Positions 4,676 through 39,822 of a DNA stretch of 64,000 bases are shown in pieces. This stretch comes from Thermodesulfobacteriota bacterium (GTDB taxonomy: Bacteria; Desulfobacterota; Desulfobacteria; Desulfobacterales; SURF-7). The stretch covers positions 146,622 to 210,621 of the forward strand of contig JBMORA010000001.1 in NCBI GenBank assembly GCA_049320885.1, in the 5' to 3' direction. The position numbers were made by a program, and so were the translations under genes. The notes beneath the pieces were generated by a model, which worked only from the letters and a program-made list of their open reading frames with translations, was not told the origin of the DNA and did no database searches. Numbering within the stretch: position 1 is the stretch's first letter; each line of letters opens with the position of its first letter.

Positions 4676-5374
4676 ATGATCAAGGCACCTCACGCTGGAT
4701 ATGGAGCGGCCCATTCGTTCCTGCTGCTGCTGGCGCTGCTGATGTTGCGCGGCTGCGAACCCGGAATGGTGGACGATGCGGTGCTCAACGATTTCGAGTC
4801 GGACGCGGATCTGGACGCGGTGCGCTGGACTTGCGGCCGGCTGTACGCCCTTTCGGAAAACCATGCCACGTCCGGACAAAAATCCCTGGTCATGACCCTG
4901 TATCCGGCTGCCTATCCGGGACTGGCCCTGAGGCTGCGGCAAACCGACTGGCGGGGATTCACCCATCTATGCATGGATATCTTCAATCCCCAACCGGAGA
5001 CATTGTCCATCACGATCCGGGTGGATGACCGCGAGGAGTATCCGCCATATGCGGATCGCTTCAATCAGAGCTTCTCGATGGCACCGGGTAACAATCACCT
5101 GGAGATACCGTTGAACAGCCTGATCACCTCCGGCTCCCGGCGGCCCCTGGACCTGGAAAACATCCGGCGGTTTTTATTTTTCATGGTGGATACGAAACAG
5201 ATCTATCACTTCCATGTCGACAACATCCGTCTCGTGAATGTGCTATCCTTCAACACTGTTTCTCACTCAATCACATACCGGACGACGGTCCACGTCCCGT
5301 TGTCATACAACACCCTGCCGGCATACTGCTTTGCCAGTTCCTTCCTGGTTGCCTCGTCCAGTAGAAATACATAG
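4676..5374 (+). CDS. exported galactose-binding-like/carbohydrate-binding domain protein, possible lipoprotein
   Basis: Hydrophobic N-terminus ending LRGC; DFES, DWRGF..L..DIFNP and VDNIRL pattern of jelly-roll CBM-like domains; abuts the upstream gene. Confidence 0.6.
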   Translation: MIKAPHAGYGAAHSFLLLLALLMLRGCEPGMVDDAVLNDFESDADLDAVRWTCGRLYALSENHATSGQKSLVMTLYPAAYPGLALRLRQTDWRGFTHLCMDIFNPQPETLSITIRVDDREEYPPYADRFNQSFSMAPGNNHLEIPLNSLITSGSRRPLDLENIRRFLFFMVDTKQIYHFHVDNIRLVNVLSFNTVSHSITYRTTVHVPLSYNTLPAYCFASSFLVASSSRNT

Positions 5375-7356
5375 TTTCTCTTCATCAGGACATCCGGGAT
5401 CCGGTATCCCTGGTACACGGCTTCCACGGTCCTGACCCTTTCCTCGATCTCCGCCTTCCCCAGGTATTTGCCCACCTTGCCGAAACGATACCCCTCTAAA
5501 TAAACAGGCCGTTCCGCGAACGTACTGGTCTGGTAGGCCACGGGTCGGCCGTTTTTCAGCTGAATGAACGGCGTGACCACCATGGTGTCCCGGGGAGTGT
5601 TCTCGCGGATATATTGCAGGGCCGCGTAGAGTTTCGGGGTAATAGTCTGATGGGCTTTTCGATAGTCGGTTTTGGAAAATTTGGCATCCATGGCCTGCCC
5701 GATTCTGCCGTACATGAAAAAATTATACGCATAGTCCTTGCGCACCCAGTTCGGCAGGCTCACAAACGGCAACGCCAGGATCACCAGTGCCCCGACCAAT
5801 CCATACAGCCGGCCGTTTCGGTAATAATCGGCCAGCAGGAAAAACACGTTTTCCCTTGCCAGATAGGACACGAAAAACAGATCCAGCAGGAAAACCGCGC
5901 TGGTGATGAAATAGGCCGTATCCTGGGGCCCCAGTCGGATACTGTAGGTGATGGCCAGGGAGCCGAGGATAACAAAGAGAATTTTGGTGTGATTCTCCTC
6001 CATACCAGCGGTTTTCATCCAATAGGGCACCAGCAGGCGGTATGAAAAATACAGCAACAGATAGATGGGCAAAATGCAAATGGTAAATACGGCATGGGCC
6101 GGGAGTTGAAACGATTCCGGCACATATTTGTAAATCACGTCCAGAAACGGCCTGGAAAAGGCATTGCCGGTTACGTATGAAAGCGGAACCAACCAGGCGC
6201 CGGACTTGCCCGCCACCTTATCCACCAGCACCTGCCCCCGAACCGGCAGCCAGAAAAAAGCGCCGTAGGCCGCGGCGAACCCCGTGAGGCCGCCGCCGAT
6301 ATCGGCCAGGTCCCGCCCATTGAACCGCTTCCGGGCAACCTGAAAAACTCCCCAGAAAAGCATACCGGCTGCAAGCGAGGCGCCGATGGAGCCTTTTGCC
6401 GCCGTGGCCAGAAAAAAGCCTGTCAGATAGACCAGGAGGCTGCCGGTTTTGGTATAGCGACCGCTATGGATCATCAGATGGATCACCGTAAAAAGCAGGA
6501 TAATCCCCATGAAATTGGTATTGCTGTTCAGATAGGAGTTGACCTTGACCTCATGAACCAGGGAGAAGCCCCCGCCGAAAAGCAGCACCGCCAGGCCATA
6601 AAATAGATAGGCCCGTTTACCCTTGACGAATTGTTGGAGAAGAAGCGCCATGTTCAGGATCAGAAACGGCACCAGCGGCACGAAACCATATTGCAGGCCC
6701 ACCATATGAGGGACCAGTCCGGTCACAAGCGCCAGGTGCGCGCCGAGAATGTGCACCAGGATATGATAGCCGACACCGGGACGACTCTCCACGTTCAGGG
6801 ACTTGAGGGGAAAGTCCGACACCAGGGAGACCGTATGCCCCGCATTCCAGACATGATCATGGAAAATATCCAGGGGCAGCAGGCCGGGCGTTGCCCTGGA
6901 CAGAAAAAACAGCCCGTTGAGAATCAGAACGAACAAGAGAAAAACCGCAAGGGTCCAGCCGGACAAAGCCGCGGCGGCGCGGAAATGGTATCCCGCGGCA
7001 TCCCGGAAAAGGTTCCTGAACGGCCCGGCTAAAAATGCAAGCATTGGCCAGACAACCCCGTAATAAAAACCAGGGAGTCCCGTCAACTGGCCGGCAAGAT
7101 AGGAGGCGCATACATTGGCCAGGCCGAAGATGGTCGCCAGGGGAAGGAGGGTGTCCCAGGCCGGTTGATGCGTGAAATCCCGCTGGAAAAACCGCAAAAA
7201 AACCAGGGCCATGATATATCCCGGCAGGAGCACTGCGACGAAAAAATGGCCCAGGGCCAGAAACACGCCGTCCAAACCGATGGCAAACAGATAAAAGAAC
7301 GCCAGGTTGGCGGCCAGCAACCCAATGGAAACCCCGATGGCAAGAGCTCTCATCAT
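5263..7356 (-). CDS. polytopic inner-membrane protein, possible GT-C-fold glycosyltransferase
   Basis: Start moved to ATG 7356 (RBS AGGAG); more than a dozen hydrophobic segments, an acidic/His loop (FHDHVWN..YHILVH) and a soluble C-terminal domain. Confidence 0.6.
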   Translation of the reverse strand: MMRALAIGVSIGLLAANLAFFYLFAIGLDGVFLALGHFFVAVLLPGYIMALVFLRFFQRDFTHQPAWDTLLPLATIFGLANVCASYLAGQLTGLPGFYYGVVWPMLAFLAGPFRNLFRDAAGYHFRAAAALSGWTLAVFLLFVLILNGLFFLSRATPGLLPLDIFHDHVWNAGHTVSLVSDFPLKSLNVESRPGVGYHILVHILGAHLALVTGLVPHMVGLQYGFVPLVPFLILNMALLLQQFVKGKRAYLFYGLAVLLFGGGFSLVHEVKVNSYLNSNTNFMGIILLFTVIHLMIHSGRYTKTGSLLVYLTGFFLATAAKGSIGASLAAGMLFWGVFQVARKRFNGRDLADIGGGLTGFAAAYGAFFWLPVRGQVLVDKVAGKSGAWLVPLSYVTGNAFSRPFLDVIYKYVPESFQLPAHAVFTICILPIYLLLYFSYRLLVPYWMKTAGMEENHTKILFVILGSLAITYSIRLGPQDTAYFITSAVFLLDLFFVSYLARENVFFLLADYYRNGRLYGLVGALVILALPFVSLPNWVRKDYAYNFFMYGRIGQAMDAKFSKTDYRKAHQTITPKLYAALQYIRENTPRDTMVVTPFIQLKNGRPVAYQTSTFAERPVYLEGYRFGKVGKYLGKAEIEERVRTVEAVYQGYRIPDVLMKRNYVFLLDEATRKELAKQYAGRVLYDNGTWTVVRYVIE

Positions 7357-7450
7357 GACTCCTTTTGTTCTGGTCTCCCGCCTTGGCGGAAGCAACGGAA
7401 GAAGGACCTGTCGGCGTGTCACTCTATAGAAGGAACGGGATTGTTATATT

Positions 7451-7585: not shown

Positions 7586-9769
7586 CTACCTCATGGAAGG
7601 CGGCAGTTGGGTGAAATCATAATATTCGTAAAGACCGGTGTGAACGGAATTGAGATAGGTCAGCAACTGCTGGTCTGTATACCCATCGACGACATAACGC
7701 TTGATGAATCCCGTTTCAGCGCCGTTTTGCGAATTCCAGTTGGTGTAGAACATCCGGCCCTGGTGGAAGGTGTCGATATAGTATTTCCCGGAAAAGCAGG
7801 TGTTGAAGAAGATCATCTTGTATTTGCAGTCTTCCGGCTGGATGTCCTTGCTGTTGGTGGCATCTATGATGGTCTTGTTGCCGTACCGGGAGTCCTCGAA
7901 ATGGGACCGGTATTCGTCCTGGTTGTCGATGCGGGAGGACTGCCGGGTGTTGGCGGGGTTGACCGCGGACAGATAATCCGCGATCATCCGGCCGCTGCCA
8001 CTGCCGGTAAGGGTCACGGTGACCGCACCCTCCACCACCGGATAGGTGCCGATGGAAGCAGTCACATAATTGCCGGCCGGTGTGTCGGCGGGTTCCCGCT
8101 GGTTCAGGGTGACGGTCCCAAGCACGGTGTTGTTCTGTTGGATGGTGTAGGTCACGGCTGTATCATTGTTCGGATCCGGGTCATAGGTGACGGAAAAATC
8201 ATAGGTGCCGGCCGGATTTCTGGTAGGATAGAATGCCAGGGTATACGTGAAGGTGTCCGCAATCGTCTGGTTGGGGGTGAAACTGTAGGTATACCCGCGG
8301 AATCCATAGAGGGTGCTGTTTTTCTGCACCGCCCAGTTGCCGCTGTATTCCACGTGGCTGAATTCCGGTTTTGAGTTGACGATGAAATAACTCGGGTTGT
8401 TCACCGGATTCGGCTTGGCGCCCGTGGGGGAATACCAAGCCGAGCCGCTGCCCTGGAAGCGCTCGAGGTATTGGCCGTTGGACGAGGCTTCCACCCGGTA
8501 GTGGGTGGGATCGCCCGGCAGGGTATAGGTCAGGTAATAATTGTAAGCCGGCAGGCGGCCCGCCGGATCATCCCAGCCATAGGGCCATTTGGCGTCGCTG
8601 CCGTCCTGATAGATGGGCGTCCAGTTGGGATAGGCCTGGCTGTAGCGGAACCCGGCGGTGGTGACATCCACCATGTCCGAGGAGCAGTTGAAGATCAGGT
8701 TGTCGTCCACATAACGCACATTCTGGAGCGCGGTGTTAAACGGCGGGAAGGTCAGGCCCAGACCGTAATTGGAATGCCCGCGGATCAGGATCACGGCGCC
8801 CTCTTCCCGGACTGCAGCCAGGAATTGTTCCTTGGTCTTCACCGGGTGGAAGAAATAGGTCACCCCGTTTTTGGGACTGGTGTAACGCCAGATCCCGTCC
8901 ACCTTGACGGCGCCGTAGCGCGACAGGCTCTGGCCGGCCACTTCCGCGAAATTGGAAATGCCGCCGTAAATTTCCACGCAGTAGATATTTTCCGACGCGG
9001 AGGTCAGTTTGATGTAGGCCTCCTTCACCATGGTATCGCTGCCGAACTCATTGGAAGCGGTCAGGCTGACGGTATAGTCACCGTCTTGGTCATACACATG
9101 GGCCGGATTCTCCTCGAAGCTGGTCTGACCGTCACCGAAATCCCAATACCATTCGGTGGCCGCGCCGCCGGTGCTCAGGTCCGTGAACTGGATCGTGGCA
9201 GGCGCACCGCCGATGGTTTTATTGGCGGAAAACTCCGCCACCGGCGGCAGGGTGTTGATCACCTCGGTGAACTTCACCGCATCGGCGCAGGTGGTATAGG
9301 TGCTGTTGGTGCCGGTTATGGTGACTGTGTATACAATACCGGCCACGAAGGAATAGGTTCCAAGGACATTCCATTGCCCGCCGTTGACGCGCTGGTTGAC
9401 CCGGACCGTGGCGGTTCCGTTGGCATGCCGGATGGCAATGGGCGCGCTGGTCACCCGGTTGGCAAACACCGTCCACCAGGCGGAGACTTCATATTCGGCT
9501 GTGGTGGGCGGAATGAAGGTATAGGTATAGGTCGCATTGTTTTTGGCATAGATGCTGTCCACACCATAGGGATCCACGCCGCTGGAAACCAGCCACGTAC
9601 CGGTATAGGACGTTTCATTGTCGCCGTTGTCGATGATGATGTCGGCCGCGGCAGAGGCGAGCCCCACCACCATAGACAGTGTTAACAGGATAAATATACT
9701 GAATATACGGGCCGGAACCGGCCTCCATCTCGCATTTTTCTTTTCCGTGATGTTTCTGAAAGTGTTCAT
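7586..9769 (-). CDS. secreted modular protein, paralog 1: 1x[golvesin/xanthan-lyase-CBM-like + PKD] plus putative clan CD cysteine-peptidase-like core (727 aa)
   Basis: Start ATG 9769 (RBS GGAG); 42-aa signal ending ASAAA; IIIDNGD..TGTW..YEVSAWW..VNQR..GGQW..ADAVKF module; PKD WDFGDG..NPAHVY..YTVSLT; core ILIRGHS...FFNTCFSG. Confidence 0.85.
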   Translation of the reverse strand: MNTFRNITEKKNARWRPVPARIFSIFILLTLSMVVGLASAAADIIIDNGDNETSYTGTWLVSSGVDPYGVDSIYAKNNATYTYTFIPPTTAEYEVSAWWTVFANRVTSAPIAIRHANGTATVRVNQRVNGGQWNVLGTYSFVAGIVYTVTITGTNSTYTTCADAVKFTEVINTLPPVAEFSANKTIGGAPATIQFTDLSTGGAATEWYWDFGDGQTSFEENPAHVYDQDGDYTVSLTASNEFGSDTMVKEAYIKLTSASENIYCVEIYGGISNFAEVAGQSLSRYGAVKVDGIWRYTSPKNGVTYFFHPVKTKEQFLAAVREEGAVILIRGHSNYGLGLTFPPFNTALQNVRYVDDNLIFNCSSDMVDVTTAGFRYSQAYPNWTPIYQDGSDAKWPYGWDDPAGRLPAYNYYLTYTLPGDPTHYRVEASSNGQYLERFQGSGSAWYSPTGAKPNPVNNPSYFIVNSKPEFSHVEYSGNWAVQKNSTLYGFRGYTYSFTPNQTIADTFTYTLAFYPTRNPAGTYDFSVTYDPDPNNDTAVTYTIQQNNTVLGTVTLNQREPADTPAGNYVTASIGTYPVVEGAVTVTLTGSGSGRMIADYLSAVNPANTRQSSRIDNQDEYRSHFEDSRYGNKTIIDATNSKDIQPEDCKYKMIFFNTCFSGKYYIDTFHQGRMFYTNWNSQNGAETGFIKRYVVDGYTDQQLLTYLNSVHTGLYEYYDFTQLPPSMR
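8978..9643 (-). repeat. 666-bp CBM-like+PKD module, single copy in paralog 1
   Basis: Aligns by eye with the five copies in paralogs 2 and 3. Confidence 0.85.
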
Positions 9770-9880
9770 AGTCTCCGTTCTCCCATTGTTATCTTGATAC
9801 AAACAAGGATCATCATGTTGCGTGAATCCGGCCCACATCCATGGGCCGCATCCTTCCTGCTTTATGTACGGCATCAGTAG

Positions 9881-9896
9881 AGCAATAGGCATGCCA
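9881..9896 (-). promoter_or_regulatory. sigma-54 -24/-12 promoter of paralog 1
   Basis: Minus strand TGGCATGCCTATTGCT (GG-N10-GC). Confidence 0.8.
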
Positions 9897-9998
9897 CCCG
9901 CCCCTGCCGGTCACAAAGAAATCCATTGTTATATTATTATGTAATTTGAAATATTTATAATATTTCAAAATCGAGCGGTTCCGACATGCAACCGGCTT

Positions 9999-10037
9999 GT
10001 GTAATTGTTTTCCTATTTATCATGTACCATTTTACCG
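9999..10037 (-). promoter_or_regulatory. putative enhancer-binding-protein site (two degenerate 16-bp direct repeats)
   Basis: GTGTAATTGTTTTCCT-N7-ATGTACCATTTTACCG, 103 bp from the promoter edge; the same motif lies at the same offset before paralog 2. Confidence 0.55.
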
Positions 10038-10189
10038 ATATGCAGCACCTTACCGACTCATTTCTGCAACCCCGTTCCGTTGCAGGGAGGCATCCCACTC
10101 ATTTTTTGCAGCACCAGGGGGTATCCAGATGCTATCGTTGGAGTTTCTTGTGGATGAATGCGGCTGGCGCGGATGGCCGGGTGGGATCG

Positions 10190-10227
10190 TGCTCCCCGTG
10201 CGCCTGACAAAGGGCGCACGGGGAACA
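10190..10227 (-). terminator. GC-rich hairpin after the stop of paralog 2
   Basis: TGCTCCCCGTGCGCC-tgacaaag-GGCGCACGGGGAACA; homologous to 7540-7576. Confidence 0.6.
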
Positions 10228-10238
10228 GGGCTGGCCTG

Positions 10239-13088
10239 CTACCTCATGGAAGGCGGCAGCTTGGTGAAATCATAGTATTCATACAGGCCCGGATGTACGG
10301 AATTGATATAGGTCAGCAATTGCTGATCCGAATATCCATCCACGACATAGCGTTTGATGAATCCCGTTTCCGCGCCGTTCTGCGAATTCCAGTTGGTATA
10401 GAACATCCGGCCCTGGTGGAAGGTGTCGATGAAATATTTCCCGGAAAAGCAGGTGTTGAAGAACATCATTTTGTACTTGCAGTCTTCCGGCTGGATGTCC
10501 TTGCTGTTGGTGGCATCCAGGATGGTCTTGTTGCCGTACCGGGAATCCTCGAAATGGGACCGGTACTCATCCTGGTTGTCGATGCGGGAGGACTGCCGGG
10601 TGTTAAGGGGATTGACCGCCATCAAATAGTCCGCGATAATCCGGCCGCTGCCGCTGCCGGTAACCGTAACAGTCACAGCCCCTTCCACCACGGGATAGGT
10701 GCCAAGGGAAACGATTACATACTTGGCTGCCGCCGTATCCGCGGGTTCCCGCTGATTCAGGGTCACGGTCCCGAGCACGGTGTTGTTCTGTTGAATGGTA
10801 TAGGTCACGGCCGTGTCATTGTTCGGATCCGGGTCATAGGTGACCCGAAAATCATAGGTTCCTGCCGGATTTCTGGGCGCATAGAATGCCAGGGTATAGG
10901 TGAAGACATCTGCTCCCGTCTGGTTGGGGGTATAGCTGTAGGTATATCCTATGAATCCATAAAGCGAGCTGTTTCTCTGGGCGGCCCAGTTGCCGCTGTA
11001 TTCCACGTGGCTGAATTCCGGTTTCGTGTTCACAATAAAATAACTCGGATTGTTCAACGGATCGGGCTTGGCACCGGTGGGGGAATACCAGGCCGGGCCG
11101 CTTCCCGCGAAGCGCTCGAGGTATTGGCCGTTGGACGAGGCTTCCACCCGGTAATGCGTCGGATCGCCTGGCAGCGTGTAGGTCAGGTAATAATTGTAGG
11201 CCGGCAGGCGGCCCGCCGGATCATCCCAGTCATAGGGCCATTTGGCGTCCGTTCCGTCTTGATAGATGGGGGTCCAGTTGGGATAGGCCTGGCTGTAGCG
11301 GAACCCGGCCGTGGTCACATCCACCATGTCCGAGGAACAGTTGAAGATCAGATTGTCGTCCACATAGCGCACATTCTGGAGCGCGGTGTTGAACGGCGGG
11401 AAGGTCAGGCCCAGACCGTAATTGGAATGCCCGCGGATCAGGATCACGGCGCCCTCCTCCCGGACCGCCGCCAGGAACTGTTCCTGGGTCTTGACCGGAT
11501 GGAAGAAATAGGTCACGCCGTTTTTGGGGCTGGTGTAGCGCCAGAGTCCGTCCACCTTGACGGCGCCGTACCGCGACAGGCTCTGGCCCACGACTTCCGC
11601 GTAGTTGGTGATGCCGCCGTAGATTTCAACACAGTAGATGTTTTCCGACGCAGAGGTCAATTTGATGTAGGCCTCCTTCACCATGGTGCCGCTGCCGAAC
11701 TCATTGGAAGCGGTCAGGCTGACGGTATAGTCACCGTCTTGGTCATACACATGGGCCGGATTTTCCTCGAAGCTGGTCTGGCCGTCGCCGAAATCCCAAT
11801 ACCATTCGGTGGCCGCGCCGCCGGTGCTCAGGTCCGTGAACTGGATCGTGGCGGGAGCGCCGCCGGAGGTTTTATTGGCGGAAAACTCCGCCACCGGCGG
11901 CAGGGTGTTGATCACCTCGGTGAACTTCACCGCATCGGCGCAGGTGGTATAGGTCGTGGAAACGCCGGTTATCGTGACTGTGTAGACCATTCCGGCTACA
12001 AAGGAAAAGGTCCCCAGGGAATTCCATTGTCCGCCGTTCAGGCGCTGGTTGACATAGACGGTTGCTGTTCCGTTTGCATGCTGGATGCGTATCGGCGCGT
12101 TTGTGACCCGGTTCGAATAGTAAGTCCACCAAGCGGACACTTCATATTCGGTAGTGGTGGGTGGAATGAAGGTATACGTATAGGCGGCATTGTTCTTGGC
12201 ATAAACGCTGTCGACGCCGTAGGGATCCACCGCAGTGGAAACCAGCCAGGTTCCGGTGAAGGAAGTGCCATTGTCCCCATTGTCGATGATGACTTCACCC
12301 GGATCTCCGCCGGTTCCGGCGCTGATGGTGATGTAGGCCGTCTTGACAGCCGTATCGCTGCCGAATTCATTGGCGGCGGTGAGGGTCACGGTGTACACGC
12401 CTTCCTGCTCATATACATGGGCCGGATTCTGTTCGGTACTGGTCTGGCCGTCGCCGAAATCCCACAGCCAATCCGCAGGAATACCGCCCGTGCTCCGGTC
12501 GCTGAACTGGATGGTGGAAGGAACCCCGCCGGTGGTCCTGTCCGCTGAAAAATCGGCTGCCGGCGGTAGCGTATTGATGATTTCGGTGAATTTCACCGCA
12601 TCCGCGCAGGTGGTGTAGGTGCTGTTGGTGCCGGTGATGGTGACCGTGTACACAACCCCGGCGACAAAGGAGAAGGTCCCCAGGGAATTCCATTGCCCGC
12701 CGTTCAGACGCTGGTTGACATAGACGGTTGTTGTTCCGCTGGCGTGCTGGATGCGGATCGGCGCGCTGGAAACCCGGTTCGAAAAATAGGTCCACCAGGC
12801 AGACACCTCGTATTCCGAAGTGGTCGGCGCCGTGAAGCTATAGGTATAGGTTGCGTTGTTTTTACAGTAGATGCTGTCCACGCCATAGGGGTTGACACCG
12901 CTCGATACCAGCCAGGTTCCGGTTGCGGAAGTCCCGCTGTCGCCGTTGTCAATGATCACATCGGCTGATGAACTGGCGGCTCCGAACACCAGCGAAAGGG
13001 ACAGCATGATCACAACCGGTAAAAAATAGGCGTGCAGCTGCCTTGGCCTCATTTTTTTCTTTTGCAAATTATTCTTGAATGAATTCAT
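10239..13088 (-). CDS. secreted modular protein, paralog 2: 2x[CBM-like + PKD] plus the same core (949 aa)
   Basis: Start ATG 13088 (RBS GGAGG, 6-nt spacing); 42-aa signal; two modules joined by AGTGGDPGE; exactly 666 bp longer than paralog 1. Confidence 0.85.
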   Translation of the reverse strand: MNSFKNNLQKKKMRPRQLHAYFLPVVIMLSLSLVFGAASSSADVIIDNGDSGTSATGTWLVSSGVNPYGVDSIYCKNNATYTYSFTAPTTSEYEVSAWWTYFSNRVSSAPIRIQHASGTTTVYVNQRLNGGQWNSLGTFSFVAGVVYTVTITGTNSTYTTCADAVKFTEIINTLPPAADFSADRTTGGVPSTIQFSDRSTGGIPADWLWDFGDGQTSTEQNPAHVYEQEGVYTVTLTAANEFGSDTAVKTAYITISAGTGGDPGEVIIDNGDNGTSFTGTWLVSTAVDPYGVDSVYAKNNAAYTYTFIPPTTTEYEVSAWWTYYSNRVTNAPIRIQHANGTATVYVNQRLNGGQWNSLGTFSFVAGMVYTVTITGVSTTYTTCADAVKFTEVINTLPPVAEFSANKTSGGAPATIQFTDLSTGGAATEWYWDFGDGQTSFEENPAHVYDQDGDYTVSLTASNEFGSGTMVKEAYIKLTSASENIYCVEIYGGITNYAEVVGQSLSRYGAVKVDGLWRYTSPKNGVTYFFHPVKTQEQFLAAVREEGAVILIRGHSNYGLGLTFPPFNTALQNVRYVDDNLIFNCSSDMVDVTTAGFRYSQAYPNWTPIYQDGTDAKWPYDWDDPAGRLPAYNYYLTYTLPGDPTHYRVEASSNGQYLERFAGSGPAWYSPTGAKPDPLNNPSYFIVNTKPEFSHVEYSGNWAAQRNSSLYGFIGYTYSYTPNQTGADVFTYTLAFYAPRNPAGTYDFRVTYDPDPNNDTAVTYTIQQNNTVLGTVTLNQREPADTAAAKYVIVSLGTYPVVEGAVTVTVTGSGSGRIIADYLMAVNPLNTRQSSRIDNQDEYRSHFEDSRYGNKTILDATNSKDIQPEDCKYKMMFFNTCFSGKYFIDTFHQGRMFYTNWNSQNGAETGFIKRYVVDGYSDQQLLTYINSVHPGLYEYYDFTKLPPSMR
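11631..12962 (-). repeat. two tandem 666-bp CBM-like+PKD modules
   Basis: Matching landmarks at 12026 and 12692 are 666 bp apart. Confidence 0.9.
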
Positions 13089-13204
13089 ATTCATCCTCCG
13101 ATGGTTGTTGTCCCGCTTGGAAACAAGAATGCGCCATATTTTATGAATCCACCTGTCATCCATGTGGCGCGAACTTCCTAATTTTTCCTGTATGAACGTT
13201 TTAA

Positions 13205-13220
13205 CGCAATAGACATGCCA
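13205..13220 (-). promoter_or_regulatory. sigma-54 -24/-12 promoter of paralog 2
   Basis: Minus strand TGGCATGTCTATTGCG. Confidence 0.8.
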
Positions 13221-13322
13221 GCCCCGATACCAAAAAATGACGGGAAAATCAATTTTAATTTCTATTTTATTCAAACGAGTTATAAAATATTGCCGTCCAG
13301 CCGCGCTGGCCCGGAAAGAACT

Positions 13323-13361
13323 ATGCAATATTTTTCCTATTTATTGTGAAAAAATATACCG
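13323..13361 (-). promoter_or_regulatory. putative enhancer-binding-protein site
   Basis: ATGCAATATTTTTCCT-N7-GTGAAAAAATATACCG, 103 bp from the promoter edge as in paralog 1. Confidence 0.55.
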
Positions 13362-13448
13362 AAATAGCACCGGTCCGTTATAGTCCAAATTCTGATTGAT
13401 CTCTATCGGCTTTTTTCAGATGGGAGCAGTCGCGGATGACAGGGAGGG

Positions 13449-13493
13449 TTCCGGTTTCCAGTGCATCCATCAAGGACGAACCGGAAACCGGGA
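13449..13493 (-). terminator. hairpin after the stop of paralog 3
   Basis: TTCCGGTTTCC...GGAAACCGGGA inverted repeat; not homologous to the other two hairpins. Confidence 0.45.
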
Positions 13494-13501
13494 ATGGCCC
13501 G

Positions 13502-16500
13502 CTACCGCATGGAAGGCGGCAGTTTGGTGAAATCATAGTATTCATACAGGCCCGGATGAACGGAATTCACATAGTCCAGCAACTGCTGATCCGAATATCC
13601 ATCCACCACATAGCGTTTGATGAATCCCATTTCAGCACCGTTTTCCGAATTCCAGTTGGTATAGAACATCCGTCCCTGATGGAAGCTGTCGATGAAATAT
13701 TTCCCGGAAAAACAGGTATTGAAAAACATCATTTTGTATTTACAGTCTTCCGGACGGATGTCCTGGCAATTGGTGGTGTCCAGGATGGTCTTGTTGCCGT
13801 ACCGGGAGTCCTCGAAATGGGACCGGTATTCGTCATTGTTGTCGACCGCGAAGAACTGCCAGGGGATGGCCGGATTGAATGCCGCCAGACCATCCGCGAT
13901 CATCCAGCCGCTGCCGCTGCCGGTCAGGGTAACGGTGACCGCGCCTTCCGCCACGGAAAAGGTTCCAAGAGAGGCGAGCACATAACTCCCGGCCGGTGTG
14001 CCGGCGGGTTCCTGCTGGTTCAAGGTCACGGTGCCGAGCACGGTATTGTTCTGTTGAATGGTGTAGGTCACGGCCGGGTCATTGGTCGGCTCCGGATCAT
14101 AAGTGACTTTGAAGTCGTAGGTACCGGCTGGATTTCTGGGTGCGTAAAACGTCAGGGTATAGGTAAACGTATCGGCGATTGTCTGGTTGGGAGTGTAGCT
14201 GAAGGTATATCCCGCGATCCCATAAAGGGTGGCGTCTTTCTGCACCGCCCAGTTGCCGCTGTGCTCCACGTGGCTGTATTCCGGTCTGGTATTGGCGATG
14301 AAAACCTCCGGATTGCTCACCGGATCGGGCTTGGCGCCCGTGGGGGAATACCAGGCCGGACCGCTGCCGGCGAAACGCTCAAGGTATTTTCCGGTGGAGG
14401 AGGATTCCACCCGGTAGTGGGTGGGATCGCCCGGCAGGGTGTAGGTCAGATAATAATTGTAGGCCGGCGTGCGGCCCGCCGGATCATCCCAGGCATAGGG
14501 CCAAATGGCGTCCGTGCCGTCCTGGTAGATGGGCGTCCAGTTGGGATAGGCCTGGCTGTACCGCAGACCGGCCGTGCTGACGTCCACCATGTGGGAGGAA
14601 CAGTTGAAAATCAGGTTGTCGTCCACATAACGCACATTCTGGAGCGCGGTGTTAAACGGCGGGAAGGTCAGGCCCAACCCGTAATTGGAATGCCCGCGGA
14701 TCAGGATCACGGCACCCTCCTCCCGGACCGCGGCCAGGAACTGTTCCTGGGTCGTGACCGGATGCAGAAAATAGGTCACGCCGGTATTGGGATTGGTATA
14801 GCGCCAGATGCCGTCCACCTTGACGGCTCCGTACCGCGACAGGCTCTGGCCGGCGACTTCCGCATAATCGGTGATGCCGCCGTAAATTTCCACACAGTAG
14901 ATATTTTCCGACGCGGAGGTCAGCTTGATATAGGCCGCCTTCACCATGGTGTCGCTGCCGAATTCATTGGCAGCGGTCAGGCTCACGGTATACTCGCCCT
15001 CCTGCTCATACACATGGGCCGGATTCTGCTCGGTGCTGGTCTGGCCGTCGCCGAAATCCCACAGCCATTCGGTGGCGTTACCGCCGGAGCTCAGATCCGT
15101 GAACTGGATGGTGGCGGGTGCGCCGCCGATGGTCTTGTTCGCTGAGAAATCAGCTGCCGGTGGGAGCGTGTTGATGATTTCGGTGAATTTCACCGCATCG
15201 GCGCAGGTGGTATAGGTGCTGTTGGCACCGGTGATGGTGACCGTGTACACAACCCCGGCGACAAAGGAGAAGGTCCCCAGGGAATTCCATTGCCCGCCGT
15301 TCAGACGCTGGTTGACATAGACGGTTGCAGTTCCGCCGGCATGCTGGATGCGGATCGGTGCGTTGGTGACCCGGTTCGAAAAGTAGGTCCACCAGGCGGA
15401 AACTTCATATTCAGCCGTGGTGGATGGAATGAAGGTATATGTATAGGCGGCATTGTTCTTGGCATAAACGCTGTCGACGCCGTAGGGATCCACTGCAGTG
15501 GAAACCAGCCAGGTGCCGGTGAAGGAGGTGCCATTGTCCCCGTTGTCGATGATGACTTCTCCCGGGTCTCCGCCCGTTCCGGCGGTAATGGTGATATAGG
15601 CCGTCTTGACAGCCGTATCGTTGCCGAATCCATTGGTGGCGGTGAGGGAGACGGTGTACACGCCTTCCTGCTCATATACATGGGCCGGATTCTGTTCGGT
15701 GCTGGTCTGGCCGTCGCCGAAATCCCACAGCCATTCGGTGGGGATACCGCCCTCACTTTGATCGGTGAACTGGATGGTGGCAGGAGCGACACCGGTGGTT
15801 CTGTCCGCTGAGAAATCGGCTGCCGGTGGGAGCGTGTTGATGATTTCGGTGAATTTCACCGCATCGGCGCAGGTGGTGTACGTGCTGTTGGCGCCAGTGA
15901 TGGTGACCGTGTAGGTTATTCCGGCGACAAAGGAGAATGTCCCCAGGGAATTCCATTGGCCGCCGTTCAGGCGCTGGTTGACATAGACGGTTGTTGTTCC
16001 GCTGGCATGCTGGATGCGGATCGGAGCGCTGGAAACTCGGTTCGAAAAATAGGTCCACCAGGCAGATACCTCATATTCGGACGTTTTCGGCGCCGTGAAA
16101 CTGTAGGTATAAGCGGCATTGTTCTTGGCATAAACGCTGTCAACACCGTAGGGATCCAGCGCGGTGGAAACCAGCCAGGTTCCGGTTGCGGAAGTTCCAT
16201 AATCCCCGTTGTCGATGATGATTTCCCCCGGGTCGCCGCCTGTTCCGGCGGTAATGGTGATGTAGGCCGTCTTGACAGCCATATCGCTGCCGTATTCATT
16301 GGCGGCGGTGAGGGTGACGGTGTACACGCCCTCCTGCTCATACACGTGCGATGGATTCTGCCCGGTGCTGGTCTGGCCGTCGCCGAAATCCCACAGCCAA
16401 TCCGTGGGAATACCGCCCGTGCTCCGGTCGCTGAACTGGATGGTGGCCGGAACCATGCCGGTGGTCCTGTCCGCTGAAAAATCGGCTGCCGGCGGGAGCG

Positions 16501-17017
16501 TATTGACAATCTCGGTGAACTTCATTGCATCGGCGCAGGTGGTGTACGTGCTGTTGGCGCCGGTGATGGTGATTGTGTAGGTAATTCCGGCGACAAAGGA
16601 GAATGTCCCCAGGGAATTCCATTGGCCGCCGTTCAGGCGCTGGTTGACATAGACGGTTGTTGTTCCGCTGGCATGCTGGATGCGGATCGGGGCGCTGGAA
16701 ACCCGGTTCGAAAAGTAAGTCCACCAGGCAGACACCTCGTATTCCGAAGTTGTCGGCGCCGTGAAACTGTAAGTGTAGGTGGCATTGTTCTTGGCATAAA
16801 CGCTGTCAGCGCCGTAGGGATCCAGCGCGGTGGAAACCAGCCAGGTGCCGGTGGCGGAAGTCCCGCTGTCGCCGTTGTCGATGATGATGTCAGCCGCTTC
16901 ACCGGCCGTTCCAGCCGCCAATGTCAGGACCAGCATGATAACCACATGGAACAAAGAGGTCTGTAACCGCCAAAGCCACATGTTGTTCTTTTCCGCGTTG
17001 TTTCTGAATCTGTTCAT
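13502..17017 (-). CDS. secreted modular protein, paralog 3: 3x[CBM-like + PKD] plus the same core (1171 aa)
   Basis: Start ATG 17017; 42-aa signal ending AGEAA; three modules; exactly 666 bp longer than paralog 2. Confidence 0.85.
   Translation of the reverse strand: [1171 protein letters not shown]
14894..16891 (-). repeat. three tandem 666-bp CBM-like+PKD modules
   Basis: Matching landmarks at 15289, 15955 and 16621 (period 666). Confidence 0.9.
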
Positions 17018-17125
17018 TACGTCCGCCCCCGGGTTTGTTATCTGAATCACTAAATGGTTTTGCCTGTTACAGCGTCAATCCGCCAGCACCTATGGTATCT
17101 ATTATCAATAGCGCCCCATCGCAAA

Positions 17126-17370: not shown

Positions 17371-18513
17371 TCAGCGACTGGCAAAAAACCCCTTGATGGA
17401 ATCCACCACCAGATCCTGTTCCTCGGATGTCAACTCATAAAAGAACGGCAACCGGAGAAGCCGGCCGCTCATGGTTTCCGTGACCGGCAATTGCCCGTCC
17501 GTATATCCCATGGACCGGCCGATGGGCGAAAGATGCAGCGGAAGATAATGGAAAACCGCCATGATTCCCTTTGTTTTCAAATAGGCCATGAGGGCATCGC
17601 GGGTATTTTCATCGTTCAGGATGATATAAAACAGGTGGCTGTTGCCCTGGCATTCGCTGGAAAGATAGGGCAGCCGGAGCTTGCCGTCGTTCACGAGGGG
17701 AATCAATGCCTTGAAATAATAATTGTAGAGTTCCTCCCGCTGGCTGTTGATCTTGTCCATGTTTTCCAGCTGGGCGAACAAAAAAGCGGCCAGCAGGTCG
17801 GAAGGGAGATAGGATGACCCCACGTCCACCCAGTTGTATTTGTCCACCTGGCCCCGGAAGAACTTGCTGCGGTCGGTCCCCTTTTCGCGGATGATTTCGG
17901 CCCGTTCGATAAATTTTGGATTGTTGATCGCAATGGCCCCGCCTTCGCCGCTGATGAAATTTTTCGTCTCATGGAAGCTGTAGGCCCCGATGTCGCCGAT
18001 GGTTCCAAGGAATTTGTCCTTGTATTTGGCGTTGACGCCCTGGGCCGCGTCCTCGATGACATACAGGTTGTGCCGCCGGGCGATATCCATAATGACTCCC
18101 ATATGGCAGCCCTGGCCGGCATAATGTACCGGGACGATGGCTTTCGTTCTTTCCGTAATCGCCGCTTCGATTTTGGTCTCATCAATGTTCAAGGTGTCGG
18201 GGCGGATGTCCACGAACACCAGCTTGGCCCCCCGCAGATAAAAGGCGTTGGCCGTGGAGACGAAGGTGAAGGAGGGCAATATCACTTCATCGCCGGGTCC
18301 GACTTCGCACAGCAGGGCGGCCATCTCCAGGGCGGCGGTACAGGAATGGGTCAGCAGGACCTTGGGGATATTGAATTTTCTTTCCAGCAACTCATGACAT
18401 TTTTTAGTGAACAGACCGTCCCCGGCGATTTGTCCGCTTAACACCGACTGGGAGATGTAATACAATTCCTTGCCCACGATGAAAGGCTTGTTGAACGGTA
18501 TACTGTAATCCAT
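17371..18513 (-). CDS. wecE: dTDP-4-amino-4,6-dideoxygalactose transaminase (DegT/DnrJ/EryC1 family)
   Basis: Start ATG 18513 (MDYSIPFNKP); LTHSCTAALEMAA, EDAAQG, SFHETKN (PLP lysine), FFRGQVDKY.WVD.GSS. Confidence 0.93.
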   Translation of the reverse strand: MDYSIPFNKPFIVGKELYYISQSVLSGQIAGDGLFTKKCHELLERKFNIPKVLLTHSCTAALEMAALLCEVGPGDEVILPSFTFVSTANAFYLRGAKLVFVDIRPDTLNIDETKIEAAITERTKAIVPVHYAGQGCHMGVIMDIARRHNLYVIEDAAQGVNAKYKDKFLGTIGDIGAYSFHETKNFISGEGGAIAINNPKFIERAEIIREKGTDRSKFFRGQVDKYNWVDVGSSYLPSDLLAAFLFAQLENMDKINSQREELYNYYFKALIPLVNDGKLRLPYLSSECQGNSHLFYIILNDENTRDALMAYLKTKGIMAVFHYLPLHLSPIGRSMGYTDGQLPVTETMSGRLLRLPFFYELTSEEQDLVVDSIKGFFASR

Positions 18514-18577
18514 GGCCGCGGCCCCTGTCTTGAACGTCGTGCTGGTTTTTGTGGACAAGTCGCCCTCCTCAGATAAT

Positions 18578-19894
18578 TCAGATATATTCATGCCCGATTT
18601 TCGATACAATGAACGGCGTTTTCCCGCTGTTCCTTCTTTCCAACTGGGCAACGAGCTTATAATCGATTTTGATCTCATTCCCCAATCGTTTCCGCAAGCC
18701 GGCCTCCAGGGCTTTTTTAGAATCCTCGCTGTAGCTGCCGTCGACGATCAGGTTCAGATAGATATGATCCACGGCGTCCTGCACGCACTGGGACAGCATC
18801 ACCCCTTTTGCGCCGTCAACGGAGTGCTCCAGGACATTGCCCAGGTATCGGCCGTCGGGGGTGACGATATAATCGTTCTGCCTCCCGACGATGGCTTTTA
18901 TCTTGCGGAAATGCCGGCCGCATCGGCAGACGGCAGGGTCCTTATCCAATATAACCCGGTCGCCGGTTCGATAGCGGATCAAGGGCATGGCGTAGTTGAC
19001 AAACCCGGTACCGATGAGTTCTCCTTCTCCGAGCCGGGAAGAGTCGTTGCCGGTTTCATCCACAATCTCGTTGTAGGCGAAATCCTCGCAGATATGTTTG
19101 GTCTGGTGACCGCATTCCGAAATGATGGTCACATTCTCATGATGGGAATAAAAATCATATACCTTGCAGCGGTAGGCTTCCTCCAGCAGTTTCCGTCTTT
19201 GTTCGGACAGGGTTTCGCCGGCGGTGACGATGGATGTAAGGGGCCGGATCGGTTTTCCCTGCTCCCGGGCGAACCGGGCCAGCATATAAATGGAAAACGG
19301 ATACCCGATAAAAACAGACGGACCGATCCGCGCAATCATGTCCAGCAGCGTTGCCGCCGAGTCTTTTTTCAATTGCTTTGCATCAAATCTCCACAGCCGG
19401 GCCATGGGGTAGTGCTTGAAGAACGCCCCGGGATCATCAAATTTATAGCTCTGAAACGAAAACGTTTTTCTGCCGGGAAAGTGTCCGGCCCACTGATAGC
19501 TTCTCAGCACACAGGCCAGCTTTTGCGCTTTGGCCGCATGATCCACGATAAAATGAAGGGGCGTGCCGGTGGAGCCGCTGGTGGAATCCCAATTAATACC
19601 GTATTCGGCGGCATTTTCGGCAACAAACTCGTCTTGATGGGTCCGCAGGATCTCCTTGCTCAATAACGGGATTTTATGCATGTCCTGCCGGCCGCGGAAG
19701 GTGGAAGGGTCGAGTTGTATTTTGTTAAAAAGATTTCGATAATATGGAACGTTTGCAGCGGCATGGCGCACGATGTTGATGAGCCGCTCATCCTGGTAGG
19801 CATGGATTCTCGCCCGATCCCATTTCTGGCTCGTCAAAAAGAAAAAATATTGCTGCGCCACCCTTGCCGCGAAACCTAGTGTCGATGTGTTCAT
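18578..19894 (-). CDS. phenylacetate-CoA ligase family / CapK-like AMP-forming ligase
   Basis: Start ATG 19894; TSGSTGTP loop, AMPLIRYRTGD, C.CGR, GRQND. Confidence 0.85.
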   Translation of the reverse strand: MNTSTLGFAARVAQQYFFFLTSQKWDRARIHAYQDERLINIVRHAAANVPYYRNLFNKIQLDPSTFRGRQDMHKIPLLSKEILRTHQDEFVAENAAEYGINWDSTSGSTGTPLHFIVDHAAKAQKLACVLRSYQWAGHFPGRKTFSFQSYKFDDPGAFFKHYPMARLWRFDAKQLKKDSAATLLDMIARIGPSVFIGYPFSIYMLARFAREQGKPIRPLTSIVTAGETLSEQRRKLLEEAYRCKVYDFYSHHENVTIISECGHQTKHICEDFAYNEIVDETGNDSSRLGEGELIGTGFVNYAMPLIRYRTGDRVILDKDPAVCRCGRHFRKIKAIVGRQNDYIVTPDGRYLGNVLEHSVDGAKGVMLSQCVQDAVDHIYLNLIVDGSYSEDSKKALEAGLRKRLGNEIKIDYKLVAQLERRNSGKTPFIVSKIGHEYI

Positions 19895-19937
19895 CCCGGA
19901 TTCCTTTTTACTGCTCACGGTTGCGGACAGACACCCA

Positions 19938-21176
19938 CTACCATTCAATACCCCGAATACCACCGGGTGTTGCGACTTCAATCACCAGCGTTTCCTGAAC
20001 CTGCTTGATGGTTTCCTGCAAATCGTTCCGGTCCTTTCCGGCAACCAGAATCGGCCCGAGCCGCAGAGTCTTGTCTTTCAGTGGACTGATATGATTTCCC
20101 ACCCGGATGTCCTCCAGGCTGACTTTTTTCACCCCCGGCAGGGAGCTGAGTTCCTCGATGCCGCTTACTCGCCGGATTTCCCCTTCCGGCAGATAAAAAC
20201 AGAGATAACCCGAGGACCGGTGCTGGATATCGGCCTTGTCGATCCGGACCCTGCCGGAATCGGTGGCGCAGGTGATCAACAGTTCGTTGACATTGATGCC
20301 GGAAGCCAAGGGGACGAGATCCGAGGAAATGAAGACGCCGCCTCCCCGGATGGCGGTTTCCACCAGATGGACATCGCCGGTGTCCGGATCGATGAGGTAT
20401 TCGCTGTGGGTGTTGCCGAATTTCGGCGCGAAACTCTTGATCAGATGTTCGTTAATGTTCAATACTTTTTGCTGAATATCCCCCGGCAGCAGGGAGGGAT
20501 ACAGGGTTTGCTTGGGGATGAACATATCGGGAAGATGGAAATAATACCGGTCGCCGATGGTCAGGTTGGTAAACTGGAAATCAAAGGCGAATCCCTGGAC
20601 AACCACCTCTTTCCGGTTCGGCAGAAACTGCTCTACGATGGCGGTCTTGCAGGCGGAAAAGCCGATGGCACTGTTCAATTTGTCTTTCAGATCATGCCGG
20701 CCGTTGACCCTGCTGACGCCGCGGCTGCCCTGACTGTCCACCGGCTTCACAACCAGGGGAAAGCCCAGTTCTTCCGCCCGATCCCGGGCGTCTTCATAGG
20801 ATTTGGACAGGAAATGCTTTGGCACGGGGACCCCGATGCTGTCGCAATATTCCCTCATCTGGAATTTATTGGTGAACCGCAGGGCGCAATCGTACCCGAT
20901 CCCGGGGAGTCCCAGTTGCTCCGCAATATAGGCGGCCGTCAGAACCGGGATATCCGTCTGATCGGTCAAAATCCCGCAGATATTTTCGGCTTTCGCAACC
21001 CTCAGGATTTCATCCTGATCCCGCACGTCGATTTCACAGGCCTTGTCGGCGGTTTTGAATCCGGGATAATCCCCCTTCATGCTCACCGCGATGGTGAAGA
21101 AACCCATTTCCTGGGCCTGCCGGATGACCGGCACCTGACATTTTCCCGCACCTAAAATCATCAGTTTTTGTTTCAA
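19938..21176 (-). CDS. ATP-grasp domain ligase
   Basis: LGAGKCQ Rossmann start, NKFQMR, PLVVKPVDSQGSRGV, VEQFL, ETAIRGGG. Confidence 0.85.
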   Translation of the reverse strand: MKQKLMILGAGKCQVPVIRQAQEMGFFTIAVSMKGDYPGFKTADKACEIDVRDQDEILRVAKAENICGILTDQTDIPVLTAAYIAEQLGLPGIGYDCALRFTNKFQMREYCDSIGVPVPKHFLSKSYEDARDRAEELGFPLVVKPVDSQGSRGVSRVNGRHDLKDKLNSAIGFSACKTAIVEQFLPNRKEVVVQGFAFDFQFTNLTIGDRYYFHLPDMFIPKQTLYPSLLPGDIQQKVLNINEHLIKSFAPKFGNTHSEYLIDPDTGDVHLVETAIRGGGVFISSDLVPLASGINVNELLITCATDSGRVRIDKADIQHRSSGYLCFYLPEGEIRRVSGIEELSSLPGVKKVSLEDIRVGNHISPLKDKTLRLGPILVAGKDRNDLQETIKQVQETLVIEVATPGGIRGIEW

Positions 21177-22171
21177 TTATCGTTTCCCTCCGCTCCGGTT
21201 GCATCCGATATGGCCAGTTTCGGTGTTTGTTCACGAATCACATAGGGCGGTTTTCCCATGGTCCGAAAATGCATCCTGGCCAGATATTCTCCGATGATGC
21301 CGATGGCAAACAACTGGAGACCGGCGAAGAGCGCGATTTCCGCCGCCATGAAGGCGAAGCCGGGGACATAGCGGGTCTGTATAATGCGCCGCACAATCAC
21401 GTACACAAACATCAAAAAACCCATGAAAGAAGTAACCAGCCCCAGGGCGCTGGCGATCCGCAGGGGTAGCGTCGAATAGCCGGTCAACATATTGAAGGCC
21501 AGCAACATCAATTTGGTCAAGGAATAACTCGACCTGCCGACCTTGCGCGGCTGATGATCAACCGGAATATTGGTCACGCCGGCCACGCTCCACGACAACA
21601 ACACATCGATGGACAACTGGGGATCGTTGAAATTCTGAAAGCCTTTCATCAGAATGGAACGAAAGGCCCGGAATGCGCTGCTGTGCCCTCCCATCTCGGC
21701 GCCGAGCACCACTTTTAATATGCCTTTCAACATCCGGGACGAGAAATTGCGGGCCGCGCTGTGCTGCCGGACCCTCGGCTTGCCGTACACCACATCGTAT
21801 CCCTCGACAAGCTTCGCGAGCAGGTTGGGAATTTCTTCCGGCGGATTCTGCAAATCGTCATCGATGGTGACGATAAAATCGTATCTCGCGTTTTGAATGC
21901 CCGCCAGCAACGCATTATGCTGGCCATAGTTGTGCATCAAGGTCATGCCGCGGACCTGCTTATTCGAACGCGACAAATCGGTGATCACCTGCCAGCTTCT
22001 GTCACGACTCCCGTCGTTGACGAATATGATCTCAAATCGATCCACCAGCGGCGTCAGTGCCAGACCGATCCTCTCGGCAAGCTCGGCCAGGGTCGCCTCG
22101 CTGTTATAAACCGGAACAACCACGGAAACGGAACTGGACGATAGAAGCTCATGTTTTTCGTTACCGGTCAT
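21173..22171 (-). CDS. GT2 polyprenyl-phosphate glycosyltransferase (ArnC/GtrB-like)
   Basis: VVVPVYN, VNDGSRD, NYGQHNA, DDDLQNPP, two C-terminal TM helices, GIIGEY. Confidence 0.9.
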   Translation of the reverse strand: MTGNEKHELLSSSSVSVVVPVYNSEATLAELAERIGLALTPLVDRFEIIFVNDGSRDRSWQVITDLSRSNKQVRGMTLMHNYGQHNALLAGIQNARYDFIVTIDDDLQNPPEEIPNLLAKLVEGYDVVYGKPRVRQHSAARNFSSRMLKGILKVVLGAEMGGHSSAFRAFRSILMKGFQNFNDPQLSIDVLLSWSVAGVTNIPVDHQPRKVGRSSYSLTKLMLLAFNMLTGYSTLPLRIASALGLVTSFMGFLMFVYVIVRRIIQTRYVPGFAFMAAEIALFAGLQLFAIGIIGEYLARMHFRTMGKPPYVIREQTPKLAISDATGAEGNDN

Positions 22172-22216
22172 CCTTTACCTCGTATTTGTATCGGTTCTTC
22201 CCTTATGCCTGGTTGA

Positions 22217-24349: not shown

Positions 24350-24439
24350 GCAACCTCCAGATATAGTGGCTTCATTGTGTTAGCGGTCATCCAGCCCGAT
24401 CCCGCGGCCTGTTCATTTCCATCATATGCCGGTTTCCGT

Positions 24440-25729
24440 TCACGGGTTTAACCGGACTTCCCGCTCGGGCTTCAGGGATACCGATAATATTCCGCGGTTC
24501 TCCACATAGTTGTTGGCGGTATCGTCCGAGTATAACTTCCGGAAAACGTATTCCAGCCGCACAGCCATCCAGGGCAATGCCTGATAAACCAGTCCGGCGT
24601 TGCTTCGCCATATGGTGTCTTCCCGCTCGGGAGCCTGGTCCATGTAGATGTTCCGGCGGTAACCGGTGCCGATCGAACCGGACAGCCTTTTGCCCAGCTG
24701 CTGGCTCACGCTTCCCGACATATGATAAAAAGGGCTGAACCCCAGATTTTCAGCTCCATAAGAGGCGATATCATACCCGACCTTGCCGGAGACGGCAATG
24801 GCGCTGCCTTCATCCCAGCTGTAGGCGCTTTCTATGGAGCCGACAATTCCGGTATCATCATCACCCGCCTCGGTGTCCCGGAAAAAATAACCGAAACTGG
24901 CCCCCAAACTTGAATTGGCTTGTTCCTTCCAGTCGAATCCCACCAGGGAACTGTGGACCTGATAGTCATCCCCCCCGGCCATGAAAACCGTATCCACGTG
25001 CGAATAGGCGATGTACCCCTCGAATTGACGCCCAAAACGCTTGATCAGACGCAGTTTGTTCATCACATCGTCAAAGTCTTCAGAAATTTCAAGGTCGTTA
25101 CGTGTATATTTGCATTCCCATTCCAGGGCATATCGGCTGGGCGACATCCAGTACATGAGCAAAAGACTTGGTCGATAGTATTCCTTGTTTTCAAGACTCG
25201 GGTCTTCGTTGTCGATCAGATAGTATTCATACCGGAGTGCGATGGAATCGTTTTTGCCGAATTGATTCAGGATGCCGAAACTGGCCGTATTGGTCTGATA
25301 GGGCTCGCGGCCCTGCCGGACGGTGAAATCCGTATCGGAAATCGGATCCTCCGTATACAGATACCGGTTTCCCAGTTCGATCCTGGTATTGTCGGTAATC
25401 TTGCCCCAGGCCCCGACGGCTGCGCTGTGGCGCAAAATGTTGTTTTCGGGGAAACGGGTATAGGAGGCGTAGGTCGGGTTGTAGGAAATGGTGAGGGCGC
25501 TGTTCCTCTCGTACATGCTCAAATCCACCCCCGGATTGAGTGTGGTGATATAGTCATATTCCTCATCCTCGGGGGTCAGGCTGGCATTGTCCGTGAAAGT
25601 GCTGCTGATGGTGAGTCCGGGCGTGAACTGAATGGTGGCGGCGGCTCTTGCCGTCATCAGAAGAAAGCACAGCACAATAACGCCCAGATATCTCATGGCA
25701 TGATAACTATATGAATTCATTGTGCGCAA
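24440..25729 (-). CDS. outer-membrane beta-barrel protein associated with exopolysaccharide export
   Basis: Signal peptide; F.P.L.IS..FTDN start, alternating amphipathic strands, Y.ENR near the C-terminus; the start could be 25720 or 25696. Confidence 0.75.
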   Translation of the reverse strand: MRTMNSYSYHAMRYLGVIVLCFLLMTARAAATIQFTPGLTISSTFTDNASLTPEDEEYDYITTLNPGVDLSMYERNSALTISYNPTYASYTRFPENNILRHSAAVGAWGKITDNTRIELGNRYLYTEDPISDTDFTVRQGREPYQTNTASFGILNQFGKNDSIALRYEYYLIDNEDPSLENKEYYRPSLLLMYWMSPSRYALEWECKYTRNDLEISEDFDDVMNKLRLIKRFGRQFEGYIAYSHVDTVFMAGGDDYQVHSSLVGFDWKEQANSSLGASFGYFFRDTEAGDDDTGIVGSIESAYSWDEGSAIAVSGKVGYDIASYGAENLGFSPFYHMSGSVSQQLGKRLSGSIGTGYRRNIYMDQAPEREDTIWRSNAGLVYQALPWMAVRLEYVFRKLYSDDTANNYVENRGILSVSLKPEREVRLNP

Positions 25730-37451: not shown

Positions 37452-37512
37452 GTGCGCTTTGTCGCCATGAAACGGACCCTGTCCATTTATGAACAACGTA
37501 GAGGTAAGATAA

Positions 37513-39803: not shown

Positions 39804-39822
39804 CAAAGGGAAGGACCGTTAA

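Follow-up and report, generated by a model that had tools for sequence, protein, structure and literature searches.

Organization of three tandem paralogs

The stretch analyzed here (the window) comprises 64,000 nucleotides of contig JBMORA010000001.1 of a Thermodesulfobacteriota bacterium of the Desulfobacterales, to which all window coordinates refer. Near its beginning, three tandem open reading frames (ORFs) are read on the minus strand, at 7586–9892, 10239–13328 and 13502–17050, and encode paralogous proteins that share a core interpreted below as a split cysteine peptidase of clan CD. Each comprises a signal peptide judged likely by eye, one, two or three Golvesin_C+PKD units of 222 residues, and a common core of 470 residues. 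The unit, 666 bp in length, thus occurs in 1, 2 and 3 copies across the three paralogs (8998–16557), the copies being 74–96% alike. Relative to the core of paralog 1, the other two show 83 and 92% identity, with 93% of columns in agreement, and their dN/dS values of 0.09–0.17 indicate purifying selection. Large plus-strand ORFs lie opposite the paralogs (e.g., 10158–12548) and were rejected as shadows, because homologs and Pfam matches fall on the minus strand.

The gene for paralog 1 (7586–9769, minus strand) encodes 727 residues from a likely start Met at 9769, downstream of a GGAG site, whereas the ORF from the first ATG reaches 9892 and encodes 768 residues. A likely Sec signal peptide (9650–9769), with a basic n-region, a hydrophobic stretch and an ASAAA-DII cleavage region, is followed by a carbohydrate-binding module (CBM)-like Golvesin_C domain (PF25275; 9266–9640, residues 85–209) and a PKD domain (9011–9247, residues 216–294), both matched by hidden Markov models (HMMs). 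The N-terminal half of the predicted caspase-fold core (8756–8998) contains strands 1–3 and helices 1–2 and has GHSNYGLG at its end, including the predicted catalytic His (8774–8776). It is succeeded by the first part of a family-specific inserted subdomain with QAYPNW and PAYNYY motifs (8363–8755), a Golvesin_C/CBM-like β-sandwich (7952–8362), and the return segment of the subdomain (7829–7951), which carries a second conserved His, H664 (codon 7901–7903), and a short helix preceding strand 4. The C-terminal half of the core (7589–7828), with strands 4–6, contains the predicted nucleophile Cys (7796–7798). A reading made earlier from the sequence alone had drawn the core at 7586–8977, slightly short of its start near 8998; its numbering of the dyad, H332 and C658, is valid from the Met at 9769 and becomes H373 and C699 in the 768-residue ORF.

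Paralog 2 (10239–13094, minus strand; likely start at 13094 or 13088, after GGAGG) carries two Golvesin_C+PKD units, and its core (10242–11651) has the insert at 10605–11015, His at 11427–11429 and Cys at 10449–10451. Paralog 3 (13502–17017, minus strand; likely start at 17017) carries three, and in its core (13505–14914) the insert lies at 13868–14278, His at 14690–14692 and Cys at 13712–13714. Paralogs 3 and 2 are preceded by the element TGGCATGTCTATTGC (17140–17120 and 13221–13200, minus strand), and paralog 1 has TGGCATGCCTATTGC at its first ATG (about 9897–9883); these elements resemble the −24/−12 consensus of sigma-54 and are candidate promoters. Three RNA runs yielded short scattered pieces at low depth, which do not show expression.

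Motif conservation and predicted fold

The motifs AVILIRGHSNYG and M(I/M)FFNTCFSG are present in all three ORFs, with the His codons (8774, 11427 and 14690) and Cys codons (7796, 10449 and 13712) exactly where the sequence-only reading had placed them and with its distance of 326 residues in each paralog. Such invariance is weak evidence because of the high identity among the three cores; homologs provide the real test. A word-seeded search with the core gave 45 proteins; 311 cluster representatives at E ≤ 0.001, 150 of them listed and some matching through Golvesin alone, as well as 22 and 29 proteins from later searches and 55 genome loci, were added. Conservation was counted on 200 sequences with both core halves, 188 of them distinct (median identity to paralog 1, 31%); 21 proteins found later stand outside this count, 17 of which have both motifs by pattern.

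Among the distinct cores, the Cys is kept in 188/188 and the His in 187/188, the sole substitution being Glu. Asn at His+2 (186/188), the second His, H664 (182/188), and Gly before the catalytic His (175/188) are nearly as constant, and a small residue precedes the Cys (S 120, G 33, T 18, A 16). Across the family, the two motifs read hhhxGH[SA]N[YF]GxG and Rh[FL]hx[SGTA]Cx[ST]xxY. The expectation that homologs would retain the paralogs' motifs held for the dyad but not for the Asn of NxC, found in only 21/188 cores; the His is followed by Ser in 143, Ala in 43 and Gly in 2. The Glu substitution belongs to the second of two tandem copies at one locus (P0067, L054:2349–4130), probably an inactive paralog, with an intact copy alongside.

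In predicted models, the two core halves refold as one six-stranded α/β sandwich with strand order 2-1-3-4-5-6 and helices on the flanks, as in clan CD. The His directly follows strand 367–371 and the Cys strand 693–697 (ORF numbering), in line with the β-strands proposed earlier ahead of each; the His thus falls at the C-terminal end of strand 3 and the Cys at the end of strand 4, with His before Cys and both conserved, which is the clan CD placement of the dyad. Covariation supports strand pairings 1-2, 1-3, 3-4 and 4-5, strands 3 and 4 being paired with a register offset of 326, from which adjacency of the His and Cys is inferred. Structural searches with the split core and with a short natural homolog both matched clan CD enzymes, GPI transamidase and the ligase OaAEP1 among them. 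The split clan CD fold advanced from the sequence is thereby supported, the nearest matches being CHAT and separase, with gingipain and caspases behind.

Several observations weigh against this assignment. With the model of the short homolog, Foldseek returned no clan CD match in the PDB at E ≤ 0.001 (best row 8tl0, E 0.29) and no match at that threshold in BFVD (top row, at E 0.062, a protein with a C14 caspase domain), and with the full core, only CBM-type rows were among the matches listed. The AF2 models and covariation are not independent, because both draw on overlapping sequences. The Gly after the His, conserved across clan CD (PMC4357240), is replaced here by Ser or Ala in nearly all cores; one C25 locus (L093) likewise has GHS. 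Finally, when an insert-free family profile was compared with CHAT, C25 and DUF6345 alignments, both residues lined up, but at probabilities of 0.6–3.4% (0.6% for CHAT in hhalign) and E values of 0.013–0.096, which are not significant. We nevertheless judge the clan CD fold almost certain, and an active His–Cys dyad enzyme highly probable. That the resemblance is a generic Rossmann/flavodoxin-like α/β fold with motifs matched by chance is exceedingly improbable in view of the dyad position and strand pairing.

A two-layered insert between the predicted catalytic residues

The window insert matches the Golvesin_C HMM above the cut-off (31.6 bits) and has a β-sandwich fold, and the large insertion proposed to split the catalytic domain is supported. 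Its size varies widely within the family: measured in alignment columns, the His–Cys spacing is 132–213 without any module in 43/188 cores, 283 with one PKD in one, 306–331 with one Golvesin_C in 30, including the genes of the window, 476–1078 in 113 whose insert holds Golvesin_C, two PKD and in some cases further modules, and 605 in one; the longest inserts are filled by Big_9/cadherin-like domains (P0093). The corresponding spacings are 42 in caspase-7, 46 in PmC11 and 49 in MARTX-CPD (PMC4357240). Given that the smallest spacing here is 132, loop L3 holds a subdomain peculiar to the family in all members, and the insert is two-layered, with zero to several optional Golvesin_C/PKD/Ig modules predicted to bud from the tip of this subdomain. 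No contiguous relative with a gap below 132 was found in word-seeded searches, which are of limited reach.

In a midpoint-rooted FastTree phylogeny of the 188 cores, short forms are nested several times among forms of the 490 type, and the proteins of the window group with P0004, P0046 and P0003 (spacing 489–490), suggesting that their lineage lost two PKD domains from the insert. Some short forms (P0158, P0179–P0194) have lipoprotein-like N-termini and long Asp-rich linkers without any Golvesin_C. Among them, P0183, P0185–P0187, P0189 and P0190 have a longer gap of 212–213, with about 78 extra residues after the His motif in the examined ones.

A helical domain of about 200 residues, with HEAT-like look-alikes and no Pfam or NCBIfam match, accompanies one large clade plus one short form in the same tree. 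At 12/55 loci (L045:8985–9677, L036:7493–8200 and 10 more) it forms a protein of its own with a signal peptide, encoded immediately downstream, and it is fused to the peptidase C-terminus at 10/55 loci and in 25/188 cores (P0020, P0022, P0038, L029, L034, L038, L040, L041, L043, L044, L049, L059 and L060 among the carriers). The motif LR[IV]CDxAYNQxV is conserved and the protein is likely secreted; it was not found in the genome of the window. The partner is a candidate inhibitor, prodomain or activator, the first two being a guess by analogy with zymogens elsewhere in clan CD, for which blocking domains have been described.

Genomic context and distribution

Upstream of the paralogs and co-oriented with them (17371–25729, minus strand) are polysaccharide-type genes for a sugar aminotransferase, a CapK/AMP-ligase-like protein, an ATP-grasp enzyme, GT2, a PKD protein and a TIGR03016-like outer-membrane protein, and a flippase-like gene is also nearby. 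The 0–30 kb before the window encode a chain-length determinant, a tyrosine kinase, a priming glycosyltransferase, an export protein, a deacetylase, exosortase, EpsI, glycosyltransferases and an amidotransferase. The paralogs thus sit close to the distal end of a locus of the XrtA type. A pattern search of the genome gave eight hits, seven of which resemble PEP-CTERM tails (VPEP/IPEP-type C-termini); sigma-54 sites have been reported for PEP-CTERM genes (PMC1569441).

With ABC ATPase excluded from the count, 38/55 family loci have at least one marker of the polysaccharide, amidoligase or exosortase kind, versus 33/277 own-genome tiles of 17.9 kb, and amidoligase-type genes alone were found at 30/55 loci versus 11/277 tiles. 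These contrasts are overstated because the queries came from family loci and many genomes are related. At 11/55 loci, exosortase or EpsI is encoded within 8 kb. Tandem copies are common. By record names, the carriers are deltaproteobacteria (Syntrophorhabdus, Desulfobacterales and Desulfosarcina), Phycisphaerae and other planctomycetes, and a few Omnitrophota and Nitrospirota; Desulfosarcina widdelii PP31 and D. variabilis are cultured. The core is rare, being found in 0/40 relatives (one Golvesin-only match) and in 2/300 other genomes sampled from the order (three more matching in the Golvesin part only; at most 4 candidates scored per genome).

Other family loci contain neighboring multi-Golvesin_C proteins (L045:11898–15854, L052:2060–4900, L014:2679–5744 and L044:2747–5920), two with GDSL esterase domains and one additionally with a polysaccharide deacetylase domain, which suggests a common polysaccharide-docking toolkit. 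In the window, proteins without a family match above the cut-off lie by the paralogs at 5263–7422 (minus) and 27616–29139, 1342–2508 and 4676–5374 (plus); among such neighbors is a 719-residue multi-pass membrane protein immediately downstream of the paralogs. Within the polysaccharide locus, the 710-residue PKD protein (22217–24349, minus) shows weak similarity to sortase-dependent M36 peptidases, in parts of these that are not catalytic. Farther away (35865–42134) are genes for multiheme cytochrome c3, ferredoxin and an NrfD-type membrane complex, typical of deltaproteobacteria of the sulfate-reducer type.

Proposed function and alternatives

The family likely works on the bacterial slime layer, and we somewhat favor a role as secreted clan CD enzymes whose His–Cys dyad cuts peptide or amide bonds in the exopolysaccharide–protein matrix around the cell. 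The paralogs would be secreted and anchored on the cell's own acidic polysaccharide by their Golvesin_C modules, one to three N-terminal and one in the insert, while the L3 subdomain, with its conserved Tyr, Trp, Asp, Arg and His residues, would shape substrate access. The Cys would attack the carbonyl, with the His as general base, to give an acyl-enzyme as in other clan CD enzymes, and hydrolysis would process or release a matrix or surface protein, such as PEP-CTERM cargo or the enzyme's own linker. Against this stands the fact that the substrate idea rests on gene context, assessed with queries from the family loci themselves and with related genomes.

The same fold and dyad may serve a transpeptidase, in which an exopolysaccharide amine resolves the acyl-enzyme and surface proteins are linked to the matrix. 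For the C25-family sortase PorU, transpeptidation with A-LPS has been proposed (PMC4560394, PMC8545088), GPI transamidase and OaAEP1 are among the fold matches, polysaccharide-binding-like modules adjoin the active site, and the own locus offers exosortase, EpsI, an amidotransferase and two sugar aminotransferases in a genome with seven VPEP/IPEP-type proteins. Yet the exosortase is itself the proposed transpeptidase of that system (PMC1569441), exosortase or EpsI is close by at only a fifth of the loci (11/55), and a core present in only 2/300 genomes of the order is not a core sorting part; we regard this alternative as unlikely.

Somewhat less likely still is action on the polysaccharide itself, by which the enzyme would remove or cross-link amino-acid or acyl decorations added by neighboring ATP-grasp, GNAT, CapK-like and asparagine-synthase-like enzymes. 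The frequency of amidoligase-type genes, the esterase and deacetylase domains on other Golvesin_C proteins of family loci, the altered residue after the His and the many conserved aromatics of the subdomain are consistent with it, whereas 17/55 loci are without any marker, the decoration chemistry is itself predicted, and clan CD enzymes are not known to act on glycans.

An inactive protein of caspase fold, serving as a scaffold or adhesin with a structural or metal-binding His and Cys, would accommodate the loss of the canonical His-Gly, a possible contribution of H664 to a metal site and the tandem copy with Glu for His. Pseudo-peptidases usually lose the Cys, whereas here both residues are all but invariant despite freely varying neighbors, making this explanation improbable.

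Beyond matrix hydrolysis, our preferred reading, it is tempting to speculate, albeit with considerable doubt, that the family comprises matrix-building transamidases, new in clan CD, in which the L3 socket sets swappable glycan-binding modules beside the dyad to attach surface proteins or decorations made of peptide to the exopolysaccharide of the cell itself, with one large clade controlled by the HEAT-like partner, either fused or secreted separately. On predicted models, the clan CD fold tolerates folded modules totaling from 130 to more than 1000 residues between the members of its dyad. In deltaproteobacteria and planctomycetes, proteins currently annotated as "PKD repeat protein" or "hypothetical" gain a catalytic hypothesis, and the tie to exosortase/exopolysaccharide loci provides a handle on the maturation and remodeling of the protein–polysaccharide matrix in sludge and sediment anaerobes.

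Relation to known families

Pfam, NCBIfam and PHROGs hold no model for the core. Specifically, the CHAT HMM (PF12770) gave no match to the three window proteins at E ≤ 0.1 or to 19 homologs, five short forms included, at E ≤ 0.05; the C25 HMM (PF01364) matched none of these proteins, its sole own-genome match lying on another contig; DUF6345 (PF19872) had no match in them or in the genome; and C14, C11, C13, C50 and C80 were absent from the Pfam/NCBIfam matches of window proteins and homologs. Against solved structures, the core sequence yielded nothing relevant (best E 0.025, carbonic anhydrase), and alignment A3 matched only in its Golvesin_C, PKD and helical-repeat parts. The insert had been suggested as something that could hide the family from profiles, but as the only cause it is rejected: short natural forms have no Pfam/NCBIfam match either and the insert-free profile remains non-significant, so that sequence divergence conceals the family no less than the insert. 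No account of the family was found in the open literature covered, a search that did not extend to InterPro, supplements or the unassigned entries of MEROPS; the Lipocone preprint does not mention caspase, golvesin or exosortase. It is therefore likely that this unnamed family is an addition to clan CD, predicted to carry an unusual expandable insertion inside its catalytic domain.

The closest known systems are the CHAT peptidases (SAVED-CHAT 8tl0, Csx29/TPR-CHAT and DdvA) and separase (C50), with 9–15% identity. Those are controlled by TPR or SAVED, whereas the present proteins are likely secreted with CBM-like modules, and the His–Cys gap of 132–1078 contrasts with about 45 in CHAT (134 and 179 in the CHAT locus L061). 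The C25 enzymes (gingipains RgpB/Kgp and the PorU sortase) have GHG, about 30–35 residues ahead of the Cys, instead of GH[SA]N and a large L3 insert, and neither the gingipain N-terminal subdomain nor a type IX secretion system (T9SS) signal was seen in the family. In clostripain (C11), PmC11 has His133 and Cys179, 46 apart, and the available text of PMC4357240 does not describe whole folded domains between the dyad residues of C11 or legumain (C13) enzymes. DUF6345 is a language-model neighbor, one member of which has YTGHANGSG, resembling the family GH[SA]NYGLG, but with a His–Cys gap of 38 and a non-significant profile comparison based on 3 sequences only. As for the modules, the window insert and N-terminal repeats match Golvesin_C and the C-terminal module of Paenibacillus xanthan lyase (6f2p) by HMM and structure, at 20% identity to the latter, and are here placed inside a peptidase loop. 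Xanthan-binding modules of xanthan lyase-type enzymes are filed as CBM84 (PMC11002231), and the kinship of the Golvesin_C modules to them appears to be one of fold likeness.
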